From Cetorhinus maximus (lineage: Eukaryota), in NCBI RefSeq assembly GCF_964194155.1, contig NC_135890.1:84010001-84074000 (forward strand): DNA of 64,000 nucleotides, read 5' to 3'. The notes under the pieces were generated by a model that saw only the letters and a list, made by a program, of their open reading frames with translations, was not told where the DNA came from and did not search any database. Positions 1-61,937 of the stretch are shown here, in pieces; the stretch's first letter is position 1, and each line of letters opens with the position of its first letter. The translations under genes and the position numbers were made by a program.

Positions 1-606
1 TGATATGGAGGTGAAAACAGACCGTCTTAATATCGATGCAGTAGTCAAATGACACAGTTGCAGGTTCATTTTGAGGTTGAATTTTGTGCCATGGTTGCAA
101 GCAGTCTGGTTCAGCCTCAAGACAGTGCCAGGTAGAGGATGGAGTTGTTGGCTAAGGCACAGTGTTCGTGCTGGGGACCAAAGATGGTGGAAATTATTTT
201 GAAAAAAAATCTGCTCATCCATAGCTGAACTGTCGAACAAGCAGCCTGACAATTTGGAGACAGAAGGGTCAAGAGAGGTGATGGTGAGATGGAGCTTTGT
301 GTTGTCAGTGTACCAATGGAAATTGGCATGCTTTTTGGATGATATTGTTGAGGGACAGCATGTAGATAACAAGTGGAATATGTTACACTGCTAACTACCA
401 CTTCAAACAACAAACCGCACTCACTACTGGCTCCGGAACATACACAGCACTTATGCTGCCAAGTTCAGAGAGCACAAAGTGCTCATGCTACCAAGTTCAA
501 ATGGGAAAGGATAAGGCCATGGAGGGATTTCGGAATGAGGATGAGAATTTTAAAATCAAGATGTTGGTGGCTCATGAGCCAATGTAGACGAATGAGAACA
601 GGGGTG
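1..606 (-). mobile_element. Old L2-clade LINE fragments (resuming at about 4392-4450)
   Basis: 490-606 resembles the L2-like copies at 21510-21990 and 37310-38040 (gagaattttaaaat...caggggtg); highly degenerate. Confidence 0.55.
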
Positions 607-3600
607 TTTTTTGTTCATTCATGGGATGTGGGCTTTGCTGGCTGGGCCAGCATTTATTGCCCATCCCTAGTTGCCCTTGAAGGTGATGGTGAGCTACCTT
701 CTTGAACTGCTGCAGTCCATCTAGTGTAGGTATATTCACAGTGCTGTTAGGAAGGGAACTCCAGGATTTTGACCCAGTGACAGTGAAGGAACGGCGATAT
801 ATGTCCAAGTCAGGATGGTGAGTGGTTTGGAGGGGAACTTCCAGTTGGCAGTGTTCCCATCTATCTGCTGTCCTTATCCTTCGAGATGGTAGTGGTCGTG
901 GGTTTGGAAGGTACTGTCTCAGGAGCCTAGGTGAATTCCAGCAGTGCATCTTGTAGATGGGATACACACTGCTGCGACTGTGCATCGGTGGTGGAGGGAG
1001 CGAATGTTTGTGGATGTGGTGCCAATCAAGTGGGTTGCTTTGTCCTGGATGGTGTCGAGCTTCTTGAGTGTTGTGGGAGCTGCACTCATTCAGGCTGTTG
1101 GGAAGATATAATAATTCTCGTAATGTTATTGCAATTTATTGTAAAATAGAGTAATTGTGTGTGTGTGTCTTAATTGGATTAAAGGCTATGATGTAAACAT
1201 GGGGGAAGTTTAGAATATAAGGTAAAAGGACATTTGTATTTTTAAATAAACCAGATTAGATTGTTTTCAAGGGAGGGGTGAAATGTGTCACCTAACCAGG
1301 TGAAGTTTAGAAACAGTGTGTTTATTTTTCCCAAAGATTACTGGTAATATTTAGTGCAACGAGAGGCTTTTATTATCAGGAAGATAAAGCCCAAAGACAT
1401 AGTGAAACAATAGGAATTTGCATTCAAAGGGGACAATATGTATAAAGGAGCGAAGGCTGTGTGTAAGGGTAGGCATTTTGAGACCTAGCAAGTGTGAAAA
1501 GTCGTCTTCATCTATGCCTCAAGCTGCTGTCTTCATTAAGAAAACCCACTTTGAATTCTACTTGTTCAGGGTATCATGTTTCTTTGCTTAAAATCTGTGT
1601 CTTACTGTTGCCTTAATGAAAGTGTAACTGGGAGTTAGATTGATATGGGGATTTAGAAGTTATCATAATAGTAATGTGTAGATCTACGTATGTATTTAAA
1701 AATAATTTCTCAATAATAAATGTTTAATCTAGTTTTGTAAAACCTATAAGACTTTATCTTATTACTACTGAATTCAAGGCATGCATCTCGAAATTTATAC
1801 AAACTGCAAAACAAGCTGTGGCAGTTGTTTCAAGTTTCCTTTTGGGATTTGAACATTTACCATTGGCTGCGCCATAACACAGGCAAGTGGGGAGTATTCC
1901 ATCACACTCCTGACTTGCACCTTGTAGATGGTGGACAGGCTTTGGGGAGTCAGGTGGTGAGTTACTCGTCGCAGGTTTCCCAGCTTCTGACCTGCTCTTG
2001 TAGTCAGTCTTTATATGGCTAGTCCAGTTCAGTTTCTGGTCAACAATAGCCCCCCCCCCCGGATGTTGTTAGTTGGGGATTCAGTGATGGTAATGCCATT
2101 GAATGTCAAGGGGAGATGGTCTTTGCCTGGTACGATGTGGCGTGAGTGTTACTTGCCATTTGTCAGCCCAAGCCTGGATATTGTCCAGCACTTCTTGCAT
2201 TTAGACAAGAGCTGCTTCAGGATCTGAGGAGTCGCGAATAATGCTGAACATTGCAATCATCAGCGCACATCCCCACTTCCGACCGTATGATGGAAGGAAG
2301 GTCATCGATGAAGCAGCTGAGGATGGTTGGGCTGAGGACACTACATTGAAAAACTCCACTGATGCCCTGGAGCTGAGATGACTGACCTCCAACAACCACG
2401 ACCATCTTCCTTTTTGCTAGGTTTGACTCTAACCAGTCGAGAGTTTTCCCCCTGACTCCAGTTTTGCTAGGGCTCCTTTATGTTACACTTGGTCAAATGA
2501 TGCCTTGATGTCAAGGGCAGTCAATCTCACCTCACCTCTGGAGTTCAGCTCTTTTGTTCGTGCATGAACCGAGGCTGTAATAAGGTCAGGAGCTGAGTAG
2601 CCTTGGTGGAACCCAAACTGGGTGTCAGTGAGCAGGTTATTGCTAAGCAAGTGCCACTTGATAGCACTGTTGATGGCTCCTTCTGTTACTTTACTGACGA
2701 TTGAGAGTAGACTGTTGGGGCGGTAATTGGCCGTATTGGCTTTGTCCTGATTTTTGCGTACAGGACATATCTGGGCAATTTTCCACATAGCCGGGTAGAT
2801 GCCAGTGTTGTAGCTGTACTGGAACAGCTTGGCTAGGGGCATGCAAGTTCTGGAGCACAAGTCTTCAGTACTATTGCTGGAATATTGTCAGGGCCCATAG
2901 CCTTTGCATGATCCAGTGCCTTCGACCATTGCTTGATATCATGTGGAGTGAATTGAATTGGCTGAAGACTGGCATTTGTGATGCTGGGAACCTCCGGAGG
3001 AGGCCGAGATGGATCATCCACTCGGCACTTCTGGCTGAAGATTGTAGCAAATGCTTCAGCCTTATCTTTTGCACTGATGCACTGGATTCCCCCATCATTG
3101 AGGATGGGGATATTTGTGGAGCCTCCTCCACAAATTGTCCACCACCATTCATGACTGGATGCGGTAGGACTGCAGATAACTGATCCGTTATTTGTGGGAT
3201 TGCTCAGCTCTGTCTATCGCATGCTGCTTATGCTGTTTGGCATGCAAGTAGTCCTGTGTTATAGCTTCACCAGGTTGACATCACATTTTTAGGTACGCCT
3301 GGTGCTGCTCCTGGCATGCCCTCCTGCACTCTTCATCGAACCAGGGTTGATCCTTTGGCTTGATGGTAATGGTAGAGTGGGGGATATGCCAGGCTATGAT
3401 GTTACAGATTGTGTTTGAGTACAATTCTGCTGCTGCTGATGGTCCACTGCGCCTCATGGATGCCCAGTCTTGAATTGCTAGATCTGTTTGAAATCTATCT
3501 CATTTAACATGGTGGTAGCCACACAGTGGTAGTGCCACACAGCATGGAAGGTATCCTCAAGAGAAGGCAGGATTTCGTCTCCACAACGACTGTGCGGTGG

Positions 3601-4391
3601 TCACTCCTACCGATACTGTCATGGACAGATGCATCTGTGACAGGCGGGTTGGTGGAGGATGAGTATGTTTTTCCCCCTTGTTGGTTCCCTCACCACTGGC
3701 CACAGCCCCAGTCATATCCTTTGGGACTGGGCCAGGTCAGTCAGTAGTGGCACTTCTGAGCCACTTTTGGTGATCGACCTTGAAGTCCCCCACCTAGAGT
3801 ACTTTCTGTGACCTTTCCACCCTCAGTGCTTCCTCCAAGTGGTATTCAACATGGAGGAACACTGATTCATCAACTGAGGGAGGGCGGTAATTGGTAATCA
3901 GCAGGAGGTTTTCTTGCCCATGTTTGACCTGATGCCATGAGACTACTTTGGGTCCAGAGTTGATGTTGAGGACTCCTAGGGCAGCTTCCTCCTGACTGCC
4001 ACCATATGACAGGACATTGTTGTTTCTGGTGTCTCGGCCGATGCTGGTTGGTCCATCCGGTTCCATTCCTTTCTTGAAACTTTGTAGTGGTTTGATACAA
4101 CTGAGTGACCATTTCAGAGTCAACCACATTACTGTGGATCTGGAGTTGCACGTAGGCCAGACCAGGTAAGAATAGCAGATTTCCTTCCCTAAAGGTCATT
4201 TCCGAACCAGATGGGTTTTCACAACAATCGACAATGGTTTTATGGTCATCATTAGACTTTTAATTCCAGATTTTTATTGAATTCAAATCCCACCATCTGC
4301 TGTGGTGGGATTCAAGCCCTGGTCCCAAAGCATTACCCTGGATCTTTGGATTACAGGTCCAGCGACAATACCACTACACCATCACCCCCTC
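607..4391 (-). mobile_element. Near full-length HER1-type (CR1-group) LINE with tRNA-derived HE1-like head; interrupted by a solo LTR
   Basis: Minus-strand ORF remnants: endonuclease (LLITNYRPPSVDESV) and RT (AMGPDNIP, NYRPNSLLSIVSKV, QFGFHQGYSAPD, ALDIKASFDQV, MCADD). 3' tail at 607-680 matches the tail of the SINE at 43352; 4100-4391 matches its head. Confidence 0.9.
1096..1879 (+). mobile_element. Solo LTR (784 bp) with 5-bp TSD CAGGC
   Basis: Starts TGTT, ends AACA; caggc at 1091-1095 and 1880-1884; host LINE is continuous across it (compare about 61630-61670); AATAAA near 1715 suggests + orientation. Confidence 0.88.
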
Positions 4392-4479
4392 TTTGGCTGA
4401 ATGGGACATGCTGAGAGTTGGGATAAGTGCTGCAGAATTTTGGATAATATCAACTTAATTGAGGGTGGGAAATGGGACA

Positions 4480-4592
4480 CTGACAGCATCTGTGGAGAGG
4501 AAGACCGCATATGGACCTGCTGTCAGACCTGTTGAGTTTTTCCAGCAATTTTTCTTTGTTTCAGATTTCCAGCATCTGTAGTATTTTGCTTT
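4480..4592 (+). repeat. Penelope-like terminal repeat fragment
   Basis: cagacctgttgagtttttccagca...cagatttccagcatctgtagtattttgcttt is the reverse complement of the repeats at 10955 and 11820. Confidence 0.7.
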
Positions 4593-4820: not shown

Positions 4821-6270
4821 AACCACTTGGAGGGGAACTTCTAGCTGGTAGAGATTACAGATTTTGCAGGTGCTGTTGAAGCAGCTTTGGCAAGTTGTAG
4901 ATGATGCTGCAGCCATGGTGCATTGGTGATTGAATATTCAAGATGGTGTACCCTAGATAGTGTTGAGCTTTTTGAACATTAGTGCCACACCCATCCCAAC
5001 ATGTGGAGAATATTCCATCATATTCCTAACTTTAACTTCATAGATGGTAGAAAGATTTTGGGGGAGTCAGGAGGTGAGCCAGTCACTGCAAAATACCCGG
5101 TCTTTGATCTCTTGAAACCACAATATTTATGTGGCTGGTGTAGTTCTGGTCAATGGTGACCCTCAGGATATTGACAATGGGGAATTTGGTTATGGTAATG
5201 CTATTTAATGTCAATGAGAGTTGCTTAGACTCCCTTGTGTTGCTTGCCAGTTATGATGCATGAATGTTGATGCTATCCACTTGGGCCTGAATGTTGTCTA
5301 AGTCTTGCTGCGTGTAGACAAGGACTACTTCGTTATCTCAGGAGTTGCAAATGGAATTGAACACTCTGTAATCACCATCAAACATTCCCACTTCTGACCT
5401 TATGATGGAAGGAAGGTCATTAATGAAACAGTTGAAGTGATTGCTCCAAGGACACTACCCTAAGGAACTCATGTAATGATATCCTGGGGCTGAGTGGATT
5501 GGGCTCTAACAAGCACAGCCACCTTCCTTTGTGCTAAGTATGACTCCAGCCAAAGTTCTCAACCGTTATTCCCACTGATTTCAGTTTAATGGGCTCCCTG
5601 GAGCCATGCTTGGTCAAATGCTGCCACAATGTCAAATGCAGCTCAGCTCTGTAATTCAGTTCTTCTGTTCATGTTTGGACTAAGGCTATAATTGGTCTGG
5701 AGCCAAGCTGTCCTGGTGAATGCAAACTGAGCATCAGTGTGCATGTTATTGGTGAGTGCTATGTCGTAGAACTGATAACACCTTCTGTCACTCCGGTGAT
5801 TGAGAGTAGACTAATGAAACAGTGATTGGTGAGATTGGTTCTGGCATTTTTGTGGACAGGACAATTTTCCACTTTTGGGTAGACTTCTGTGGCTGGGCTG
5901 GACTGGCTCCCTCCACTGCGCTCATCCATTTCTTTATGGCACATGGAATAAATCATATGGACTGGCCTTTGTGATGATGTGGACCTCAGAAAGAAGCCAA
6001 AGTGGGTCATCCACTTGGCAGTACCGGCTGAAGAGAGTTGAGAATACTTGATTCATGTGGAATGGAATACTCCATTCGCGTGCTGGGATCTGCCATTGTT
6101 GAGGATGGGGATATTTGTGGAGCTGCCTCCTCCTCCTAGTTGTTTAATTGTCCACTGGCCTTCATAACTGGATGTGGCAGGTCTGCAACTCTTTAATTTG
6201 ATCCTTTGGTTGTGGAAATGCTTAGCTCTTCTATTGCATGTTGATGTTTGTTCACAAGCCACTTGGCCTG
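4821..6270 (-). mobile_element. Older, decayed HER1-type LINE copy
   Basis: Collinear similarity to 820-3250 (cccacttctgaccttatgatggaaggaaggtca; gttgaggatggggatatttgtggagc). Confidence 0.85.
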
Positions 6271-8945: not shown

Positions 8946-8949
8946 TCAG

Positions 8950-9230
8950 TATGCATGTGTTGTAGTTTCATCAGGTTAGCACCTCATTTTCAGATACCCC
9001 TGGTACTGCTTGCTTGAAGTATCCTCTCCTGTACTCATCAAACCAAGGTTGGTTACCTGGCTTGAAGGTAATGGTGAGCCATTTGCTGGGCCTTGAAGTT
9101 GCAGAATGTGGTGTAATACAGTTATTCACTGCTGATGACCCACAACGCCTCATTGCCCAGATCTGAGCTGCATGATCTGTTCTGAATTTCTCATATAGCA
9201 TGGTGTTAGTGCCACATAACATAACAACTA
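8950..9230 (-). mobile_element. HER1-type LINE internal fragment
   Basis: ITFKPGNQPWFDE remnant; similar to 3250-3520. Confidence 0.75.
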
Positions 9231-14162: not shown

Positions 14163-15972
14163 CATAAGACATAGGAGCAGAAATTAGGCCATTCGGCCCT
14201 TTGAGTCTGCTTCGCCATTCAATCATGGCTGATAAGTTTCTCAACCCCATTCTCCCGCCTTCTCCCCGTAACCTTTGATCCCCTTACCAGTCAAGAATCT
14301 ATCTATCTCGATCTTAAATACACTCAATGTCCTGGCCTCCAGAGCCTTCTGTGGCAATGAATTCCATAGATTCACCACTCTCTAGCTAAAGAAGTTTCTC
14401 CTCATCTCTGTTCTAAAAGGTCTTCCCTTTACTCTGAGGCTGTGCCCTTGGGTCCTAGTCTCTCCTACTAATGGAAACATCTTCCCCACATCCACTCTAT
14501 CCAGGCCTTTCAGTATTCTGTAAGTTTCAATCAGATCCCCCCTCATCCTTCTAAACTCCATCGAGTATAGACCCAGAGTCCTCAAACGTTCCTCATATGT
14601 TAAGCCTTTCATTCCTGGGATCATTCTCGTGAACCTCCTTTGGACCCTCTCCAGGGTCAGCACATCCTTCCTGAGATATGGGGCCCAAAATTGCTCACAA
14701 TATTCTAAATGTGGTCTGACCAGAGCCTTTTAAAGCCGCAGCAGCACATCACTGCTTTTATATTCTGGTCCTCTCGAAATAAATGCCAACATTGCATTTG
14801 CCTTCCTAACTACCAATTCAACCTGCAAGTTAACCTTAAGAGAATCCTGGACTAGGACTCCTAAGTCCCTTTGCACTCCAGATTTCTGAATTCTCTCCAC
14901 ATTTAGAAAATAGTCTATGCCTCTATTCTTCCTACCAAAATGCATGACCTCACACTTCCCCACGTTGTATTCCATCTGCCACTTCTTTGCCCATTCTAAC
15001 GTGTCTAAATCCTTCCGCAGCCTCCCCGCCTCCTCAATACTACCTGTTCCTCCAACTATCTTTGTATCACCTGCAAACTTAGCCAGAATGCCCTCAGTTC
15101 CTTCATCTAGATCATTAATGTATAAAGTGAAAAGTTGTGATCCCAACACTGACCCTTGCAGAATTCCACTAGTCACCGGCCGCCATCCTGAGAAGGACCC
15201 CCTTATCCCCACTCTCTGCCTCCTGCCAGACAGCCAATCTTCTATCCATGCTAGTACCTTGCCTCTAACACCATGGGCTGTTATCTTACTGAGCAGCCTC
15301 CCTTGCGGCACCTTGTCAAAAGCCTTCTGGAAGTCCAAGTAGATAACATCCATTGGCTCTCCTTTGTCTACCCTACTCGTTACCTCCTCAAAGAATTCTA
15401 ACAGATTTGTCAGGCATGACCTCCCCTTGATGAAACCATGCTGACTTTGCCCTATTTTACCATGCACTTCCAAGTATTCTGAAATCTCATCCTTAATAAT
15501 GGACTCTAAAATCTTACCGACGACCGAGGTCAGGCTAATCGGCCTGTAATTTCCCGTCTTTTGCCTCACTCCCTTCTTAAACAGGGGGGTTACATTAGCA
15601 ATTTTCCAGTCCTCTGGGACCCTCCCTGACTCCGGTGATTCCTGAAAGATCACCACTAATGCCTTCACTATCTCTTCAGCTATCTCCTTCAGAACTCTGG
15701 GGTGTAATCCATCTGGTCCAGGTGATTTATCCACCTTCAGACCTTTCAGTTTTCCTAGCACCTTCTCCTTAGTAATGGCCACCATACTCACCTCTGCCCC
15801 CCGACTCTCTTGAATTTTGGGGATGTTACTCGTGTCTTCCTCCGTGAAGACTGACGCAAAGTACCTATTCAGTTCCTTCGCCATTTCTTTGTTCCCCATT
15901 ATTACTTCTCCAGCGTCATTTTACAGCGGCCCAATGTCCACTTTTGCCTCTCTCTTACCCTTTTATATATCT
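14163..15972 (-). mobile_element. Young 5'-truncated CR1 LINE; RT ORF2 nearly intact
   Basis: ORFs 14730..15899 and 14382..14663 are in the same frame, separated by a TAA; KSPGPDG, NYRPISLTS, QHGF, LDFQKAFDKV, QGSVLG and FAGD (normally FADD) motifs; intact 3' UTR. Confidence 0.95.
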
Positions 15973-21509: not shown

Positions 21510-21990
21510 AACAACAAATACTTTTATTTATATATCACCTTTTAACATATTAAAACACTCTGCTATACAGCAGTATTAGCAGCCTAAATATTAAAACATT
21601 CTGCTATACAGCAGTGTTAGCAGACTAAATTTGATACAAGTCACTAAAGTAGATATTAGGACAGGGAGCACGTAGGTTTTAAGGAGCATCATAAAGGAAG
21701 AAAGGGTTGGGGGGAGAAGTTTAGGGAGGGAATTCCAAAAGAAATTGGGTCTGAACTAGGGTAGAATTGGAGAAATACGGAGTTCTTTGTTGTAGGGCTG
21801 AGCAGAGATTTGAACATAAAGGAGAATTTTAATTTTGACATCTTTCTGGAGCGGGAGATAATGAAGGTCAGCACGCACAGGGATGATGGGTACATGAGAC
21901 TTGGTGCAAGTCAAGATATGGGCCACAAAGCTTTATATGAGCTGAAGTTTATGGAAGTTGGAAGACTGGCCCGGAAGGCCCTTGTTTAGT
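21510..21990 (-). mobile_element. L2-clade LINE 3' end with internal 40-bp tandem duplication
   Basis: atttatatatcacctttttaac-like tail; gtttagggagggaattcca; atattaaaacactctgctatacagcagtattagcagcctaa repeated at about 21547-21630. Confidence 0.7.
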
Positions 21991-22576: not shown

Positions 22577-23368
22577 CATAGAATCACACAATTTTAAGTG
22601 CACAGATGGAGGCCATTCGGCCCATCGTGTCCGTACCAACTCTCCAAATGAGCATTATGATCCAGTGCCATTGCCCTGCCTTTTCCCTGTTTCTTTTCTT
22701 TTCAAATAATCATCTAATGCCCTCTTGAATGCCTTGATTGAACCTACCTCCACCACACTTCCAGGCAGTGCATTCCAGATCTAAACCACTCGTCGTGTGA
22801 AGAAGTTTTTTCTTATGTCACATTTGCTTCTTTTGCAAATCACTTTAAGTCTGTGCCCTCTCGTTCTTAATCCTTTTAAGAGCGGTACAGCTTTTCCCTG
22901 TCTACTCTGTCCAGCCCCCTCACACTTGTCTGCATTGAACTTCATCTGCCCTCTCCGCCAACTTGTCGATGTCCTCGTGAAGTTCCATACCATCCTCCTC
23001 GCAGTTCACAACACTCCCAAGCTTCGTATCATCCGCAAACTTTGAAAGTGTCCCCTGCACACCAAGATCTAGATCATTAATACATATCAGGAAAAACAAG
23101 GGTCACAATACCGACCCCTGGGGAGCTCCGCTACAAACCTTCCTCCAGCCCAAAAAATATCCATTGATCATTACTCTCTGCTTCCTATTTTTCAGCCAAT
23201 TTTGTATCCACGTTGCTACTGTCTCTTTTATTCCATGAGCAATAACTTTTCTCTCAAGCCTGTTGTGTGGCACTGTATCAGATGCCTTTTGAAAGTCCAC
23301 GTATACCACATCAACAGCATTACCCTCATCGACCTATTCTGTAACCTCTTCAAAAAACTCAATCAAGA
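22577..23368 (-). mobile_element. CR1 LINE fragment with internal deletion
   Basis: VYVDFQKASDTVPH...GAPQGSVL, MKFNADKCE fused to RTRGHRLKV, then 3' UTR. Confidence 0.88.
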
Positions 23369-24319
23369 AGCTCAGTAAAATTCTGGATTTCTCTCTCACC
23401 TCTTATTATCAAAGTCAGAAATTCTTGGAGTAAAAGAATTAAAATTTACCTTTTCTAGAATTTCCATTCCTGCTGCCATTGCTGAAATTGAAGGCAGTGC
23501 AATGGATGAACATTGTATATCATGGTGTCTGTTTTCTATAAATTTTACAGTTGCCACCCTGTACATTTTAATTTCATTGAAGTCGATAAAGATTTTATTT
23601 TATTTTTCTCTTCTCCGTTTTATTCCCTCTGACTTTGCTGAAGGCACTCATTCATGGCGGAGTTGTGGTCCTTTGGGTAAAAGTTCTGGTACCTTGTCCC
23701 CGGTACCATCCATAATCTGTTATCTGGGCAATGAGTGTTAGCAAACTGTTACATCACAGATGTTTTGCAGCCGGACCCAATCATTTGGTATATCCATCAA
23801 GAATCATTGACAGCGAACAGGAAAAGTGATTTTTCCCCTTTAACCCACTTACCTGTTCCCTGTCTAGTCTAAAGGTAATCGCTGCAGCTGAGAAATTAGG
23901 AATCAGAAGCAGGAGCCCTGAGAACTCAGAGCAATAGATTTAAATTACATGGTGGAAAGTTTATTTTATTTGAGTGAGTTTGAGAGAGAAATCAGAGCTT
24001 GAAGTTCCAAAGCAGAGCTTTAGTTTAATGCCCAGCTTTTTGTGTGGGCAGTAGCTTTGAATATACACCTAGCTAGCCTAATCTGTTTTAAACTTGTAAT
24101 TGTCCTTGTTCTTTCCTCCCATCTTAATTAAAAATGATCTATGTTTTGTAATTTATATTTTGTAGTTTTAAATAAATAGTTTTAAAAAATCAATTGACGA
24201 AGTGTTTGTCAAATTCATGGAATCTGCTTCCAAGTTCAAAAAATTCTGGTTTGTGATTCTAGATTTTGAACACGTTTTTGGCATCTCACAGTATCGTGAG
24301 ATTTTTTTGAGATTGTGAG

Positions 24320-26082: not shown

Positions 26083-28432
26083 TCCAATAGGACGGTGCAT
26101 TGCTGGACCTAATTCTGGGGAATGAAGCTCGACTGGTGGCTGAGGTGGTGGTGGGCGAGCATTTTAGTGATAGTGACCACAACATGGTACAGTTTAAGTT
26201 TGTTATGGACAAAGAAATCGACAAGTTGCAAAAAAATGTTTTGGATTGCGGGAGAGTGGATTTTAGTAAAATAAGGCAGGATCTGGCCAAGGTAGACTGG
26301 GAACAGTTACTTGTGGGGAAATCTACAGAGGAACAGTGGGGGGTGTTCAAAAAGGAAAAGGAGAGGGTACAGGCTCAACATGTTCCCTCTAGGGTGATAG
26401 GAAGGAGTAACAAGCCCAGAGAACCATGGATGACCAGAGGTATTAAGGTTACGATGAGAAGGAAAAGAGGCTTTTAGCAGGTACAAGGGAAGCAAATCAG
26501 CAGAGGCATTAGTGGAGTACAGACAGTGCAGGGTGGAGCTTAAGAAAGCAATCAGGAGAGCAAAGAGGGGATATGAGAAAGCCCTGGCTGGTAAAAGAAG
26601 GGAAAATCCCAAGATATTCTATAAGTATATCAATGGGAAGAGGATAACCAGGGAAAGAGTAGGGCCCATAAGGGACCAAGGGGGCAATCTATGGGTGGGG
26701 CCAGAGGACATGGCTAGAGTGTTGAATGAATACTTCACGTCCATCTTCACCCAAGAGAATGTGGATGAAGGTATCGTACTCGGGGAGAGAGACTGCAAGG
26801 TTCTTAAGCAAATTGATATGGGGAGTGACAAGGTATTGGAGGTTTTGGCAGGCTTAAAAGTGGGCAAATCTCCAGGTCCGGATGATTTGTGTCCCAGACT
26901 GCTGAGGGAGGCAAGGGAGGAGATCGCAGGGGCTCTGACCCAAATTTTTAATTCCTTTCTGGCCACGGGGGAGGTGCCAGAGGACTGGAGAACAGCTAAT
27001 GTGGTTTGGCTATTTAAGAAGGGTTGTAGAGATAAGCCAGGGAACTAGAGGCCAGTGAGTCTCACGTCAGTGGTAGGGAAACTATTGGAGAAAGTTCTGA
27101 AGGAGAGTATCTATCTCCACATGGAGAGGCAGGGTTTGATCAGGGATAGTCAGCATGGCTTTGTCAGAGGGAGGTCATGCCTAACAAATTTGATTGAATT
27201 TTTTGAGGTGGTGACCAGATGTGTAGATGAGGGTAGTGCAGTTGATGTAGTTTATATGGATTTCAGCAAAGCCTTTGACCAGGTCCCACATCGGAGACTT
27301 ATAAAGAAGGCAAAGGCACTTTGGATACAGGGTAATTTGATAAGGTGGATTCAAAATTAGCTTAGTTGTAGGAGGCAGAGGGTGATGACAGAAGGATGCT
27401 TTAGTGACTGGAAGCCAGTGTCCAGTGGCGTACTACATTGATCTGCTGCGTCCCCTATTATTTGTCATTTATATAAATGACATTGATGACTATGTGGGGG
27501 GTAGGATTAGTAAATTTGCGAATGACACAAAGATTGGCCGGGTGGTTAACAGTGAAGTTGAGTGTATTGGGTTACAGGAAGTTATAGATGGGATGGTCAA
27601 ATGGGCAGATAAGTGGCAGATGGAATTTAACCCTGAAAAGTGTGAGGTGATACACTTTGGAAGGAGTAATTTGACAAGGAAGTATTCAATGAATGGCATG
27701 ACACTAGGAAGTTCTGAGGAACAAAGGGACCTTGGCATGTGTGTCCATAGATCTCTGAAGGCAGAGGGGCATGTTAGTGGGGTGGTGAAAAAGGCATATG
27801 GGACACTTGCCTTTATCAATCGAGGCATAGATTACAAAAGGAGGGAGGTCATGTTGGAGTTGTATAGAACCTTGGTGAGGCCACAGCTGGAGTATTGTGT
27901 GCCGTTCTGGTCACCACGTTATAGGAAGGATGTGATTGCACTGGTGGGGGTGCAGAGGAGATTCAGCAGGATGTTGCCTGGGATGGAACATTTAAGTTAT
28001 AAAGAGAGGTTGGATAGACTTGGGTTGTTTTCGTTGGAGCAGAGAAGACTGAGGGGCGACCTGATCGAGGTGTACAAGATTGAGGGGCATGGACAGGGTG
28101 GATAGGGAGCAGCTGTTCCCCTTAGTTGAAGGGTCAGTCACAAGGGGGCATAAGTTCAAGGTGAGGGACAGGAGGTTTAGGGGCCATGTGAGGAAAAACT
28201 TTTTTACCCGTAGGGTGGTGACGGTCTGGAATGCACTGCCATGGGATGGTGGTGGAGGCGGGTTGCCTCACATCCTTTAAAAAGTACCTGGATGAGCACT
28301 TAGCACGTCATAACACTCAAGGCTATGGGCCAAGTGCTGGTAAATGGGGTTAGGTAGGTAGGTCTGGTGTTTCTCACATGTTGGTGCAGACTCGATGGGC
28401 CAAAGGGCCTCTTCTGCTGTGTGATTCTGAGT
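26083..28432 (+). mobile_element. Young 5'-truncated CR1 LINE, ORF2 broken by stops and frameshifts
   Basis: LDLILGNE...SDSDHNMV (endonuclease end), KSPGPDD, SQHGFVRGRSCLTNL, MDFSKAFD, FANDTK, RRLRGDLIEVYK; 3' tail ends tgtgattct. Confidence 0.95.
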
Positions 28433-37309: not shown

Positions 37310-38040
37310 TTTAATGTAGTAAAAATCCCCAAGATGCTTCACAGGAGCATTCTCAAACAACATTTGACACCAAGCCGCATGAGATAATACGACAGATTGG
37401 ATTAAGGAGTATCTTGAAGGAGGAGAGTGGGGGGTTGGAGAAGTTTAGGGAGGGAATTCAGGAGCTTTATGCCCATTCACTTGAAGGCATGGCTGCCAAT
37501 GGTGGAGCTACTAAAATCGGGGATGCACAAAAAAGCCAGATTTAGAAAAGTGCAGAGATCTGAGAGGTTTATATGGCTAGAAGGATGAGAAATTTTAAAA
37601 TTGATGAATTTCAGGCTGTGAACGCAGTGTTGATCAAGCACAGGAGTGATGGATGACCAGGACTTGGTACAAATTAGGATATGGGCAATAAAGTTTTGAA
37701 GGACTTCAAGTATATGGATGAGGGGTTTCGGTAACAGGTGAGCTGAGACGGGGGTGAACTGGGCAGTGTTATGGAGATGGAAGAGAACAGCTTTGGTGGT
37801 GAATTAGATATGTGGTTGGAGGCTCGTCTTGGGTTCAGATATGTTTCCCAGGTTGTGAACAGTCTGGTTCAGCCTTGGACAGCTGACAGAAAGATGAATG
37901 AAATCGACTGCTCAGAATTGGAGCTTGTGGTGGAGACCAAAGACATTGACTTCAGTCTTCTCAGTATATAGTTGGAGGAAGTTTCTGCTTACCCAGTACT
38001 GAATATCGTACAAGCAGTCTGACAAATCGGGGAGAAGTGG
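37310..38040 (-). mobile_element. L2-clade LINE 3' part
   Basis: Same family as 21510-21990. Confidence 0.75.
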
Positions 38041-43351: not shown

Positions 43352-43728
43352 GGGGGAGGCGATGGCATAGTGGTATTGTTGCTGGATTAATAATCCAGAG
43401 ACCCAGTGTAATGCTCTGGGGACATGGGTTCAAATCCCCCCATGGCAGATGGTGGAATTTGAATTGAATAAAAATCTGGAATTAAAAGTCTAATGATGAC
43501 CATGAAACCATTGTCGATTATTGTAAAAAATTTAAAAAAAAACAAATGGTTTTCTAATGCCCTTTTGGGAAGGAAATCTGCCATCCTCAACCTGGTCAGC
43601 CCTACATGTGACTCCAGACCCACAGCAATGTGGTTGACTCTTAAATGCCCTCTGAACGAGGGCAATTACGGATGGCCAATAAATGCTGGCCTAGCCAGTG
43701 ATGCCCACATGACTGAATAAAAAAAAAA
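43352..43728 (+). mobile_element. Full-length HE1-type tRNA-derived SINE
   Basis: A box TGGCATAGTGG 43363-43373, B box GGTTCAAATCC 43427-43437, HER1-type tail (aataaatgctggcctagccagtgatgcccacat) and A-tail. Confidence 0.92.
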
Positions 43729-43729
43729 G

Positions 43730-60092: not shown

Positions 60093-60695
60093 GGAGTGAG
60101 GTGAAACTGACTGGCCTTGACATCAAAGCAGCATTTGAGTATGGCATCAGGGAGCCCTAGCAAAACTGGAGTCAGTGAGAATCGGGGAGAAAACTCTGCT
60201 GGTTGGAGCCATGTGCAACACAAAGGAAGATGGCTGTGGTTGTTGGAGGTCAATCATTTCAATCCTCAGGGTAGTGTCCTAGGCCCAATCACCTTCAGCT
60301 GCTTCATCAATTACCTTCCTTTCTTCATAAGGTCAGAAGTGGGGATGTTCGCTGATGATTGCACAATGTTCAGCACCATTTGCGACTCCTCAGATACTGA
60401 AGCAGTCCATGTCCAAATGCAGCAAGACCTGGACAATAACCAGGCTTGGGCTGACAAGTGGTAAGTAACATTCGTGCCACACAAGTGCTGGGCAATGACC
60501 ATCTCCAACAAGAGAAAATCTAACCATTGCTCCTTGGACATTCAATGGCATTACCATCGCTGAATCCCCACTATCAACCTGGGGGTTACTATTGACCAGA
60601 AACTGAACTGGATTAGCCATAATATATACTGTGACTACAAGAGCAGGTCAGAGGCTAAGAATCCTGCAGTGAGTAACTCACCACCTGACTCCCCA
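60093..60695 (+). mobile_element. HER1-type LINE RT fragment
   Basis: PQGSVLGPITFSCFINYLPFFIRSEVGMFADDCTMF...QAWADKW in ORF 60117..60464. Confidence 0.9.
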
Positions 60696-61160
60696 AATTT
60701 GGTGGTCCTCCTACAAGATGGTACCTCCTTCCTTCCTCCCACTCTGCACTACAAAACTCGCACTCCCTTCCCTGTGCGCTCTTCCATAAAGTACCCAATC
60801 CCTGCCCACCCAATGCCTCTGACTTACCTGAGTCTGAGATATATTGGGGTTTTCATCATGGACCTGCCTGTAGCCCTGGCACCGCCCACTACTGAGCTCT
60901 GACGTTGCTGGGACAAGAGCTGCCAGCCTATCAGGCCCACACTTTCCTTGTTGCCACCCGCATTATGTTATTGCTGTGCGACAGACATTTTCCTCAAGGT
61001 TGGTTTCCGACTGACTTTCTAGTTAAGGGGCTGGGGGCGAACAGTATGTTTCCCTCCCCAGCCCTGTGACTGCGCTTTAAAAATGATTTATTTTCCTACT
61101 ATTTTTCTGAATTCACGTACCATACGGTGCACAAAAAGGAAAATAGAAAAATGAGCAAAC

Positions 61161-61812
61161 TTTTTTTGTTCCTTCAAGTGATGTAGGCGCCACTGGCAAG
61201 GCCAGCATTTTTTGCCCATCCTTAATTGCCCTTGAGAGGGTGATGGCGAGCTGCTGCCTTGAACTGCTGCAGTTGATGTGGTGTAGGTACACCCACAGTG
61301 CTGTTAGGAAGGGAGTTTCAAGATAGTGAAGGAACAACGGTGTAGTTCCAAGTCAGGATGGTGTATGGCTTGGAGAGGAACTTGCTATTGGTAGTGTTCC
61401 CATGCTTCTGCTGTTCTTGTCCTAGGTGGTAGAAGTTGCATTCTAGCACATGGAAGGTGCCAAAGATATGTTGGTGAGTTGCTGCAGTGCATCTTGTAGA
61501 TGGTACACACTGCTGCCACAATGCGTTCGTTGGTGGTGGAGGGAGTGAATGAATGTTTGTGGATAGGGTGCCAATCAAGCGGGCTGCTTTGTCCTGGATG
61601 GTGTTGAGCTTCTTGAGTGTTGTTGGAGCTTCACTCATCCAGGCAATTGGAGCGTATTCCATCACACACCTGACTTGTGCCTTGCAGATGGTGGACAGGC
61701 TTTGGGGAGTCAGGAGGTGAGTTACTGAAGGATTCCTAGTCTCTGACCTGTTCTTGTAGCCACAGTATTTATATGGCTAGTCCAGTTCAATTTCTAGTCA
61801 ATGGTAACCACC
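61161..61812 (-). mobile_element. HER1-type LINE 3' end
   Basis: MMEYAPIAWMSEAPTTLKKLNTIQDKAARLIG; collinear with 607-1095 plus 1880-2045. Confidence 0.9.
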
Positions 61813-61937
61813 AAGAACTTAGTTATTTTAATGTCAGATTAGTATGCAAGACGCATAAGCTCACCATATGTTGTAATACGAATATACCCATATAGAGATA
61901 AATAAAGCTGAATATAGTATTGTGACAAAACTGGGGG

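Follow-up and report, generated by a model that had tools for sequence, protein, structure and literature searches.

The closest described systems are the elasmobranch Zenon retrotransposons, for which Stuart et al. (2026; PMC13343379) provide consensus sequences of 3,244 to 3,314 bp from Carcharodon, Scyliorhinus, Rhincodon, Squalus, and the ray Hypanus. In the accessible text of that paper, Zenon is characterized by the lack of an ORF1 together with a poly-A tail, the elasmobranch members are stated to be in no repeat repository, the word "tRNA" occurs 0 times and "SINE" solely in a reference, and neither Pol III nor T runs come up. On the SINE side, a systematic Repbase survey, in its accessible part, describes SINEs with the 5' part of a LINE only for RTE and Vingi and treats as unknown where conserved SINE bodies come from (PMC5786205). 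HE1 is counted among the V-SINEs (table of PMC3747384; PMC4824008).

The window, a stretch of 64,000 nucleotides from the 4.0-Gb genome of Cetorhinus maximus, holds a decayed LINE copy whose parts are given in Table 1. As the original prediction had it, the first 290 bp or so of this copy correspond to the head of a SINE located elsewhere in the window: positions 4110-4389 (minus strand) match 43355-43647 with 79.5% identity (E 1e-69), and the A and B boxes assigned to this head are both present, the latter in decayed form. The element had also been said to end in the SINE's own tail, and positions 607-677 indeed match 43659-43728 at 83% identity. The further statement that the head runs straight into the endonuclease (EN), leaving no room for an ORF1, is right about the ORF1 but not about the direct passage: a linker of about 95 bp, with a small deletion at its head end in the window copy, and a deletion of about 230 bp private to this copy (4017/3998), which takes away the EN start, intervene. 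At 24 of the 29 other junction loci fetched, the sequence runs into the EN past the point of this deletion. The EN and reverse transcriptase (RT) remnants of the window copy occupy 3998-1880 and 1095-680, split by a 784-bp solo-LTR-like insert at 1096-1879; this solo-LTR-like repeat has further copies in loci L128, L136, L273, and L282.

Table 1. Parts of the window element, its flanks, and the SINE with which it was compared (window coordinates)
Feature	Position	Strand	Basis or remark
Whole decayed tRNA-headed Zenon-type LINE copy	607..4389	-	Family length 3,283 bp; copy 84-92% to family
tRNA-like part of head	4295..4389	-	ARAGORN on family sequence
Pol III A box TGGTGTAGTGG	4371..4381	-	Sequence
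Pol III B box GGCTTGAATCC	4308..4318	-	Decayed in window copy, perfect in family
Conserved head body	4110..4294	-	Common to both SINE subfamilies; neither V nor Meta domain
LINE-specific linker	4017..4109	-	Open frame begins here; Arg-rich; out-of-frame AUG
Endonuclease (APE) and reverse transcriptase remnants	1880..3998	-	Pfam Exo_endo_phos and RVT_1 on sister copies
Solo-LTR-like later insert	1096..1879		TG...CA ends, 5-bp duplication GCCTG
ORF end, 3' UTR, A tail	607..1095	-	Final ~67 bp = SINE tail
Host repeat, left flank	517..606	+	Joined-flank alignment
Host repeat, right flank	4392..4481	+	Co-linear with left flank
SINE, younger subfamily (A)	43352..43729	+	Family 1-292 joined to 3217-3283

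The host repeat was proposed to be interrupted once, by head and body together. To assess this, the two flanks were joined across the element by script and aligned to uninterrupted copies of the host repeat, with 300 shuffles as the null. The joined flanks are co-linear with the host copies at 21804-21969 (score 67) and 37582-37724 (score 78), above the shuffle maxima of 58 and 61, and they align to a further locus, L074, at 71.5% over 193 bp (E 3e-27). Each flank alone is weak, and plain blastn returned no match for single flanks. Since the joined flanks align straight across the element, head and body arrived together, as one insertion in an older repeat. A clear target-site duplication was seen neither at the window copy nor in most of 13 other full-length copies.

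The names HE1 and HER1, under which the SINE and the LINE had been predicted, were not borne out. The motif of the 80-bp V domain of V-SINEs is absent from the window at 3 mismatches, the head has only a 21-bp B-box stretch in common with a V-type SINE (L295:1360-1700), and bivalve V-SINE alignments differ from the head. The V-type SINE of L295 is a separate family of this genome, and its V 18-mer matched once genome-wide. A SINE without a V domain is probably not HE1, nor its LINE HER1; identity with HE1 and the V-SINEs was rejected on the missing V domain, which sets the pair apart from HE1/HER1 by their published description. MetaSINE identity was rejected because the 66-bp Meta domain is missing (by eye, against bivalve MetaSINE alignments). 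The SINEBase supplement may already name the SINE of 43352.

It is the elasmobranch Zenons that the LINE matches. The consensi CarCar_Zenon-1, ScyCan_Zenon-1, RhiTyp_Zenon-1, HypSab_Zenon-1, and SquAca_Zenon-1 begin with the same head, followed by the linker; hagfish and coelacanth Zenons have another 5' start, with T runs near their 5' ends (in each case by eye, over the first 400 nt). Judged over the first 400 nt and by total length, the window LINE is an elasmobranch Zenon of PMC13343379, and the absence of ORF1 is not its novelty, since this is a trait of the whole Zenon clade as described there. In an RT tree without a named Zenon reference, the family stands beside unnamed relatives and far from the canonical CR1 of sharks. 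Its nearest full-length relatives (the P0001 cluster, P0004, P0006, and L296) are 32 to 41% identical and include a protein from the sponge Sycon, a patchy spread that is in line with the patchy Zenon phylogeny. Other CR1-group RT remnants lie in the window at 26665-28084 and 22935-23378, at 22 to 29% protein identity. The Zenon sequence is therefore already in print, and what is unreported in the accessible text of its description is the reading of the 5' end as a tRNA-type Pol III head. In the open-access literature searched, no autonomous LINE with a tRNA head or with transcription by Pol III is described.

The passage from head to body is family-wide. A junction query found at least 40 other places, and all 29 that were fetched cross from the head into the linker. 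Exact matches number 7,897 for a 33-mer of the head, 2,778 for a 35-mer from where the head ends, and 20,390 for a 34-mer of the LINE tail; of the first 100 matches to the 35-mer, about two thirds are of the LINE type. Run contigs of three organisms likewise pass from head into linker, and two predicted whale-shark proteins (P0017 and P0126) fuse head or linker to the EN. The candidate RNA contigs X15 and X18 also span the head-linker junction, with loose ends at 568; because they may be DNA or intronic, we do not count them as expression. EN-only and mid-ORF queries were used so that copies would not be chosen by their head: 15 of 29 and 13 of 29 copies, respectively, reach head position 45 or less and pile up at position 1, while the remaining ones end at scattered points, like 5'-truncated LINEs. 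Among these 58 loci, no two copies have the sequence adjoining their 5' end in common. When ten RT-selected copies were extended upstream, five reached position 21 or less, one more ended in the head, and four ended in the linker. Chance adjacency at one locus is ruled out by the body-selected copies and by the presence of the junction in thousands of copies.

These counts bear most directly on the suggestion that the LINE is a non-autonomous SINE-LINE chimera moved by an ordinary Zenon that escaped view and has a different 5' UTR, or else a one-off adjacency. SINEs commonly swap tails or form chimeras (PMC5786205; PMC7245038), and our searches scored the best 40 candidates, which leaves room for a rare master with another 5' end. 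Within that scope, none of the 58 body-selected or 14 extended loci has an alternative 5' end, and full-length copies hold neither another 5' UTR nor an ORF1; every elasmobranch Zenon consensus, moreover, carries the head (PMC13343379, first 400 nt), and the ORF is under selection (see below). We regard this explanation as very improbable and already close to refuted. The competing proposal, an ORF1-less LINE with a tRNA-derived 5' end, agrees with head and body forming one unit in the family. Queries for an older, head-less relative with the diverged window copies at 8948-9221, 61250-61550, and 5450-5750 returned only the main family. The window itself contains, at 4952-6270 and 8948-9221 (minus strand), a far more diverged (70-76%), insertion-split copy of the same LINE clade, with its 5' end outside view, and, at 60096-61816, a 5'-inverted family copy (2112-2764 plus, 2625-3282 minus), with similar inversions in L064, L066, and L079.

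A majority sequence of the family, built from twenty head-bearing copies and the window copy, spans 3,283 bp and consists of the head (1-315), the linker, a single frame (302-3226), a 57-bp 3' end, and an A tail. Its one EN-RT frame of 975 codons leaves no room for an ORF1. Four stops interrupt this frame in the raw majority sequence, all of which disappear after CpG correction, and Pfam recognizes APE (Exo_endo_phos) and RT (RVT_1) on family and sister copies. The ends of 14 copies are A-rich, as the poly-A tail of Zenon would have it. Of 30 sites that vary between subfamilies, 19 are third codon positions (P 7e-4), and of the changes shared between old and young layers, 12/21 are at third positions and 10/21 are synonymous (P 0.03). 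This excess at third positions and of synonymous changes indicates that source elements were selected for their protein; on these substitution patterns, the ORF is evidently under purifying selection in the source lineages. The non-CpG divergence of copies averages 6.7%, with a minimum of 3.4% (n = 83), and none of the copies examined was intact or very young. The expectation of an intact ORF2 held for the CpG-corrected consensus but not for any single copy examined. For ray and whale-shark copies, Table S3 of PMC13343379 gives 3 of 612 and 1 of 1,419 as having an intact ORF2.

Pol III stops at four or more T's. The sense strand of the family contains no TTTT in its 3,283 bases, compared with 14 AAAA, 11 CCCC, and 9 GGGG, while the antisense strand has 14 TTTT; the interrupted terminators TTTNTT and TTNTTT are absent from the family as well. 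The T-run check named in the original prediction thus came out as transcription by Pol III would require. Within the ORF, TTT occurs 4 times where synonymous-codon shuffles predict 12.9 (none of 5000 gave so few), and TTTT occurs 0 times compared with 2.0 expected, which is not significant alone (P 0.09). A dinucleotide null gives P values of 0.11 for TTT and 0.23 for TTTT; it absorbs much of the T-run signal, because TT itself is depleted (o/e 0.70). Another force against U-rich RNA could yield the same depletion.

Comparison with other LINEs sharpens this pattern. The window contains, at 14514-15929 (minus strand), a member of a young canonical CR1 family, whose copies are 96 to 97% alike and have long open frames (822 aa in L116). 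A control ORF of the same-genome CR1, with a like T content (22% T), has 34 TTT and 7 TTTT in 2,466 nt. A metagenome scan yielded 80 related loci, of which 55 with an open frame of at least 550 residues were kept and 25 were dropped as short or broken. Each of the 55 ORFs has at least four TTTT; in the 19 with no more than 24% T, the density of TTT is at least 7.6 per kb, versus 1.4 in the Zenon family, and the closest related ORF (L296, 41% identical) has 31 TTT and 7 TTTT. No B box was found upstream of any of the 55, whose contigs may end short of the true 5' ends, and ARAGORN called no tRNA in the 60 related loci scanned. Phenylalanine makes up 1.8% of the family protein, compared with 3.0 to 7.4% in the relatives (2.3% in P0004, known as protein only). 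As the relatives show no overlap with the family in either the TTTT or the B box feature, the head and the purge of T runs appear together, in the shark lineage only.

A head with A and B boxes combined with a coding strand free of TTTT makes end-to-end transcription by Pol III likely. We infer that the Zenon LINE family is transcribed by Pol III and translates its own EN-RT from that RNA, and we assign this reading, which is drawn from sequence, a probability of roughly 0.65. The main competitor, which we consider unlikely, is that Pol II transcribes the LINE, either from a promoter in the head body or by read-through from the host, and that the tRNA-like fold just marks the 5' end, for instance as an RNase P cut site, as ribozymes serve R2 and RTE. 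A capped or processed RNA would ease translation, the 5' end is where LINEs usually have their promoters (PMC6740152; PMC5786205), and the family has both an AATAAA in its tail and a head for which ARAGORN, at default settings, gives an 89-nt cloverleaf whose variable arm is long. At the level of single-copy heads, ARAGORN called a tRNA in one of six, Rfam matched neither a tRNA nor a ribozyme in the heads, and a pattern search for the parent tRNA matched SINE copies instead (6/6 read). What transcription by Pol II does not predict is the purge of T runs relative to the same-genome CR1 and to 55/55 relatives; also against it, five species have retained A and B boxes that are perfect.

How the protein would be started from such an RNA is less straightforward, as the family sequence has no in-frame AUG upstream of the EN. 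The AUG at 293 is in good context and is followed by a stop two codons on. By eye, all five species retain both, but the AUG shares the EN frame in only three of six published consensi, and this difference in frame weakens read-through of the stop at 299-301. A second conserved AUG, at 348, begins a frame of 35 codons that is offset from the EN by one base. Changes in the length of the linker spacer are mostly 0 or -3 before the second AUG, and private 1-nt changes follow after it; the fold of the L253 linker does not surpass that of shuffled sequences (z +0.5). In distant relatives the EN is preceded by a short basic leader resembling the in-frame linker, and in most of the 55 related ORFs the frame has a Met close to its beginning.

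The missing start codon, like the purge of T runs, would be accounted for by a division of labor, in which Pol III makes the RNA that is reverse transcribed and Pol II read-through of the same or sister copies provides the protein, so that the LINE would be a giant SINE with its own gene. No usable in-frame AUG would then be needed on the uncapped RNA, and whale-shark copies are often intronic (10.1101/443036, accessible part). That the ORF is under purifying selection in different subfamilies and species, on the other hand, requires a tight linkage between protein and template, and the read-through RNA would lack an in-frame AUG as well. We hold this explanation to be somewhat less probable still than transcription by Pol II alone.

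The SINE and the LINE had been predicted to have both ends in common, and the junctions agree. The first 30 head loci in position order comprise 5 LINEs, 9 copies of SINE-A, 13 of the SINE-B type, 1 other deletion (337 to 3151), and 2 unclear cases. SINE-A joins position 292 to 3217 (two of the 9 with small deletions), the SINE-B type joins about 315 to 3216, and in 22/30 loci the SINE tail equals family positions 3216/3217-3283, some with small deletions. With a tRNA-like head bearing A and B boxes and a LINE-derived 3' tail, both are tRNA-derived SINEs (SINE2). A single diagnostic base separates the classes in 14/14 loci assigned to the LINE type and 15/16 assigned to SINE-B. SINE-A heads share an 8-bp deletion and substitutions with the main LINE, and SINE-A tails match a LINE subfamily. 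An older LINE layer carries a SINE-B-type head (117 exact matches; the old head in 9 of 30 fetched, by eye), as does the Squalus Zenon consensus in its first 400 nt (PMC13343379). A tree of 37 heads unites those of young LINEs and SINE-A in a single clade (support 0.97), whereas those of old LINEs and SINE-B intermix. The tree and the subfamily markers together indicate that heads track age and not class, and the origin of the SINEs by repeated deletion from the LINE would fit these sequences; steady exchange of modules fits too, because both SINEs keep a nearly identical 3' breakpoint. Further internal-deletion forms occur in L153, L248, and L282 (breakpoints 337-3151, 385-3119, and 350-3160), which may be incipient SINEs. 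At family positions 278-289, a deletion of 12 bp that lies between short direct repeats marks a large LINE subfamily and is found also in the SINE copies L137 and L147.

According to the Pol III reading, TFIIIC would bind the internal A and B boxes of the head, Pol III would read 3.3 kb and stop at a T run in the flank, and the uncapped RNA, which has no in-frame AUG before the EN, would be translated from a non-standard start. The EN-RT protein would then bind the 3' tail and insert the element by target-primed reverse transcription. With promoter and tail at opposite ends, loss of the middle by deletion or template switch would turn the LINE directly into a functional SINE, and this would account for the recurrence of SINE subfamilies. 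Since the relatives lack the head, it probably derives from a tRNA or tRNA-SINE that was captured in an early elasmobranch. With slightly lower confidence than in Pol III transcription and translation as such, we would describe the family as an "autonomous SINE": a coding retrotransposon with an internal tRNA-type Pol III promoter since the shark-ray ancestor, whose 2.9-kb frame lost its U runs through recoding and which bred SINEs by loss of its middle. Its 3.3-kb transcript would be an mRNA made naturally by Pol III, on which translation would start independently of a cap, at a non-AUG codon or through a frameshift.

RNA polymerase III normally makes only short non-coding RNAs. If the Pol III reading is true, the textbook division into non-coding SINEs transcribed by Pol III and coding LINEs transcribed by Pol II is erased, a long translated Pol III RNA exists in nature, and there is a direct route to the birth of SINEs. 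The Zenon family is also a large part of shark genomes, as the matches to its tail in this one illustrate, and the Pol III claim is open to standard polymerase-inhibitor, promoter-mutant, and reporter assays. The element itself is known, as Zenon; new is a LINE with the promoter of a SINE and a coding strand fit for Pol III.

Set against the known systems, the window family is like the elasmobranch Zenons in its first 400 nt, its length, the absence of ORF1, the A tail, and the combination of APE and RT, and differs in the points on which the accessible text of that description is silent: tRNA, Pol III, a SINE partner, and T runs (PMC13343379). The Persaeus SIDE and lepidopteran Zenon, as far as described in PMC6740152, are similar in that the short element consists of the 5' and 3' ends of Zenon; Persaeus, however, has neither tRNA homology nor a Pol III promoter. 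Bipartite SINEs derived from RTE or Vingi, such as Bov-tA, also have 5' and 3' sequence in common with their LINE, but in the accessible description only the SINE bears the tRNA head and the LINE stays with Pol II (PMC5786205), whereas here the LINE, of the CR1 group, has the tRNA head. HE1/HER1 resembles the pair described here in being an elasmobranch tRNA-derived SINE with the 3' tail of a CR1-group LINE, yet it is a V-SINE pair, and known pairs have only the tail in common. R2 is a single-ORF non-LTR element with an uncapped RNA made by a polymerase other than Pol II and a non-standard start. Its ribozyme and its read-through are noted in PMC5786205. R2, however, relies on Pol I read-through at a fixed rDNA site, whereas the Zenon family would bring its own Pol III promoter and insert widely.
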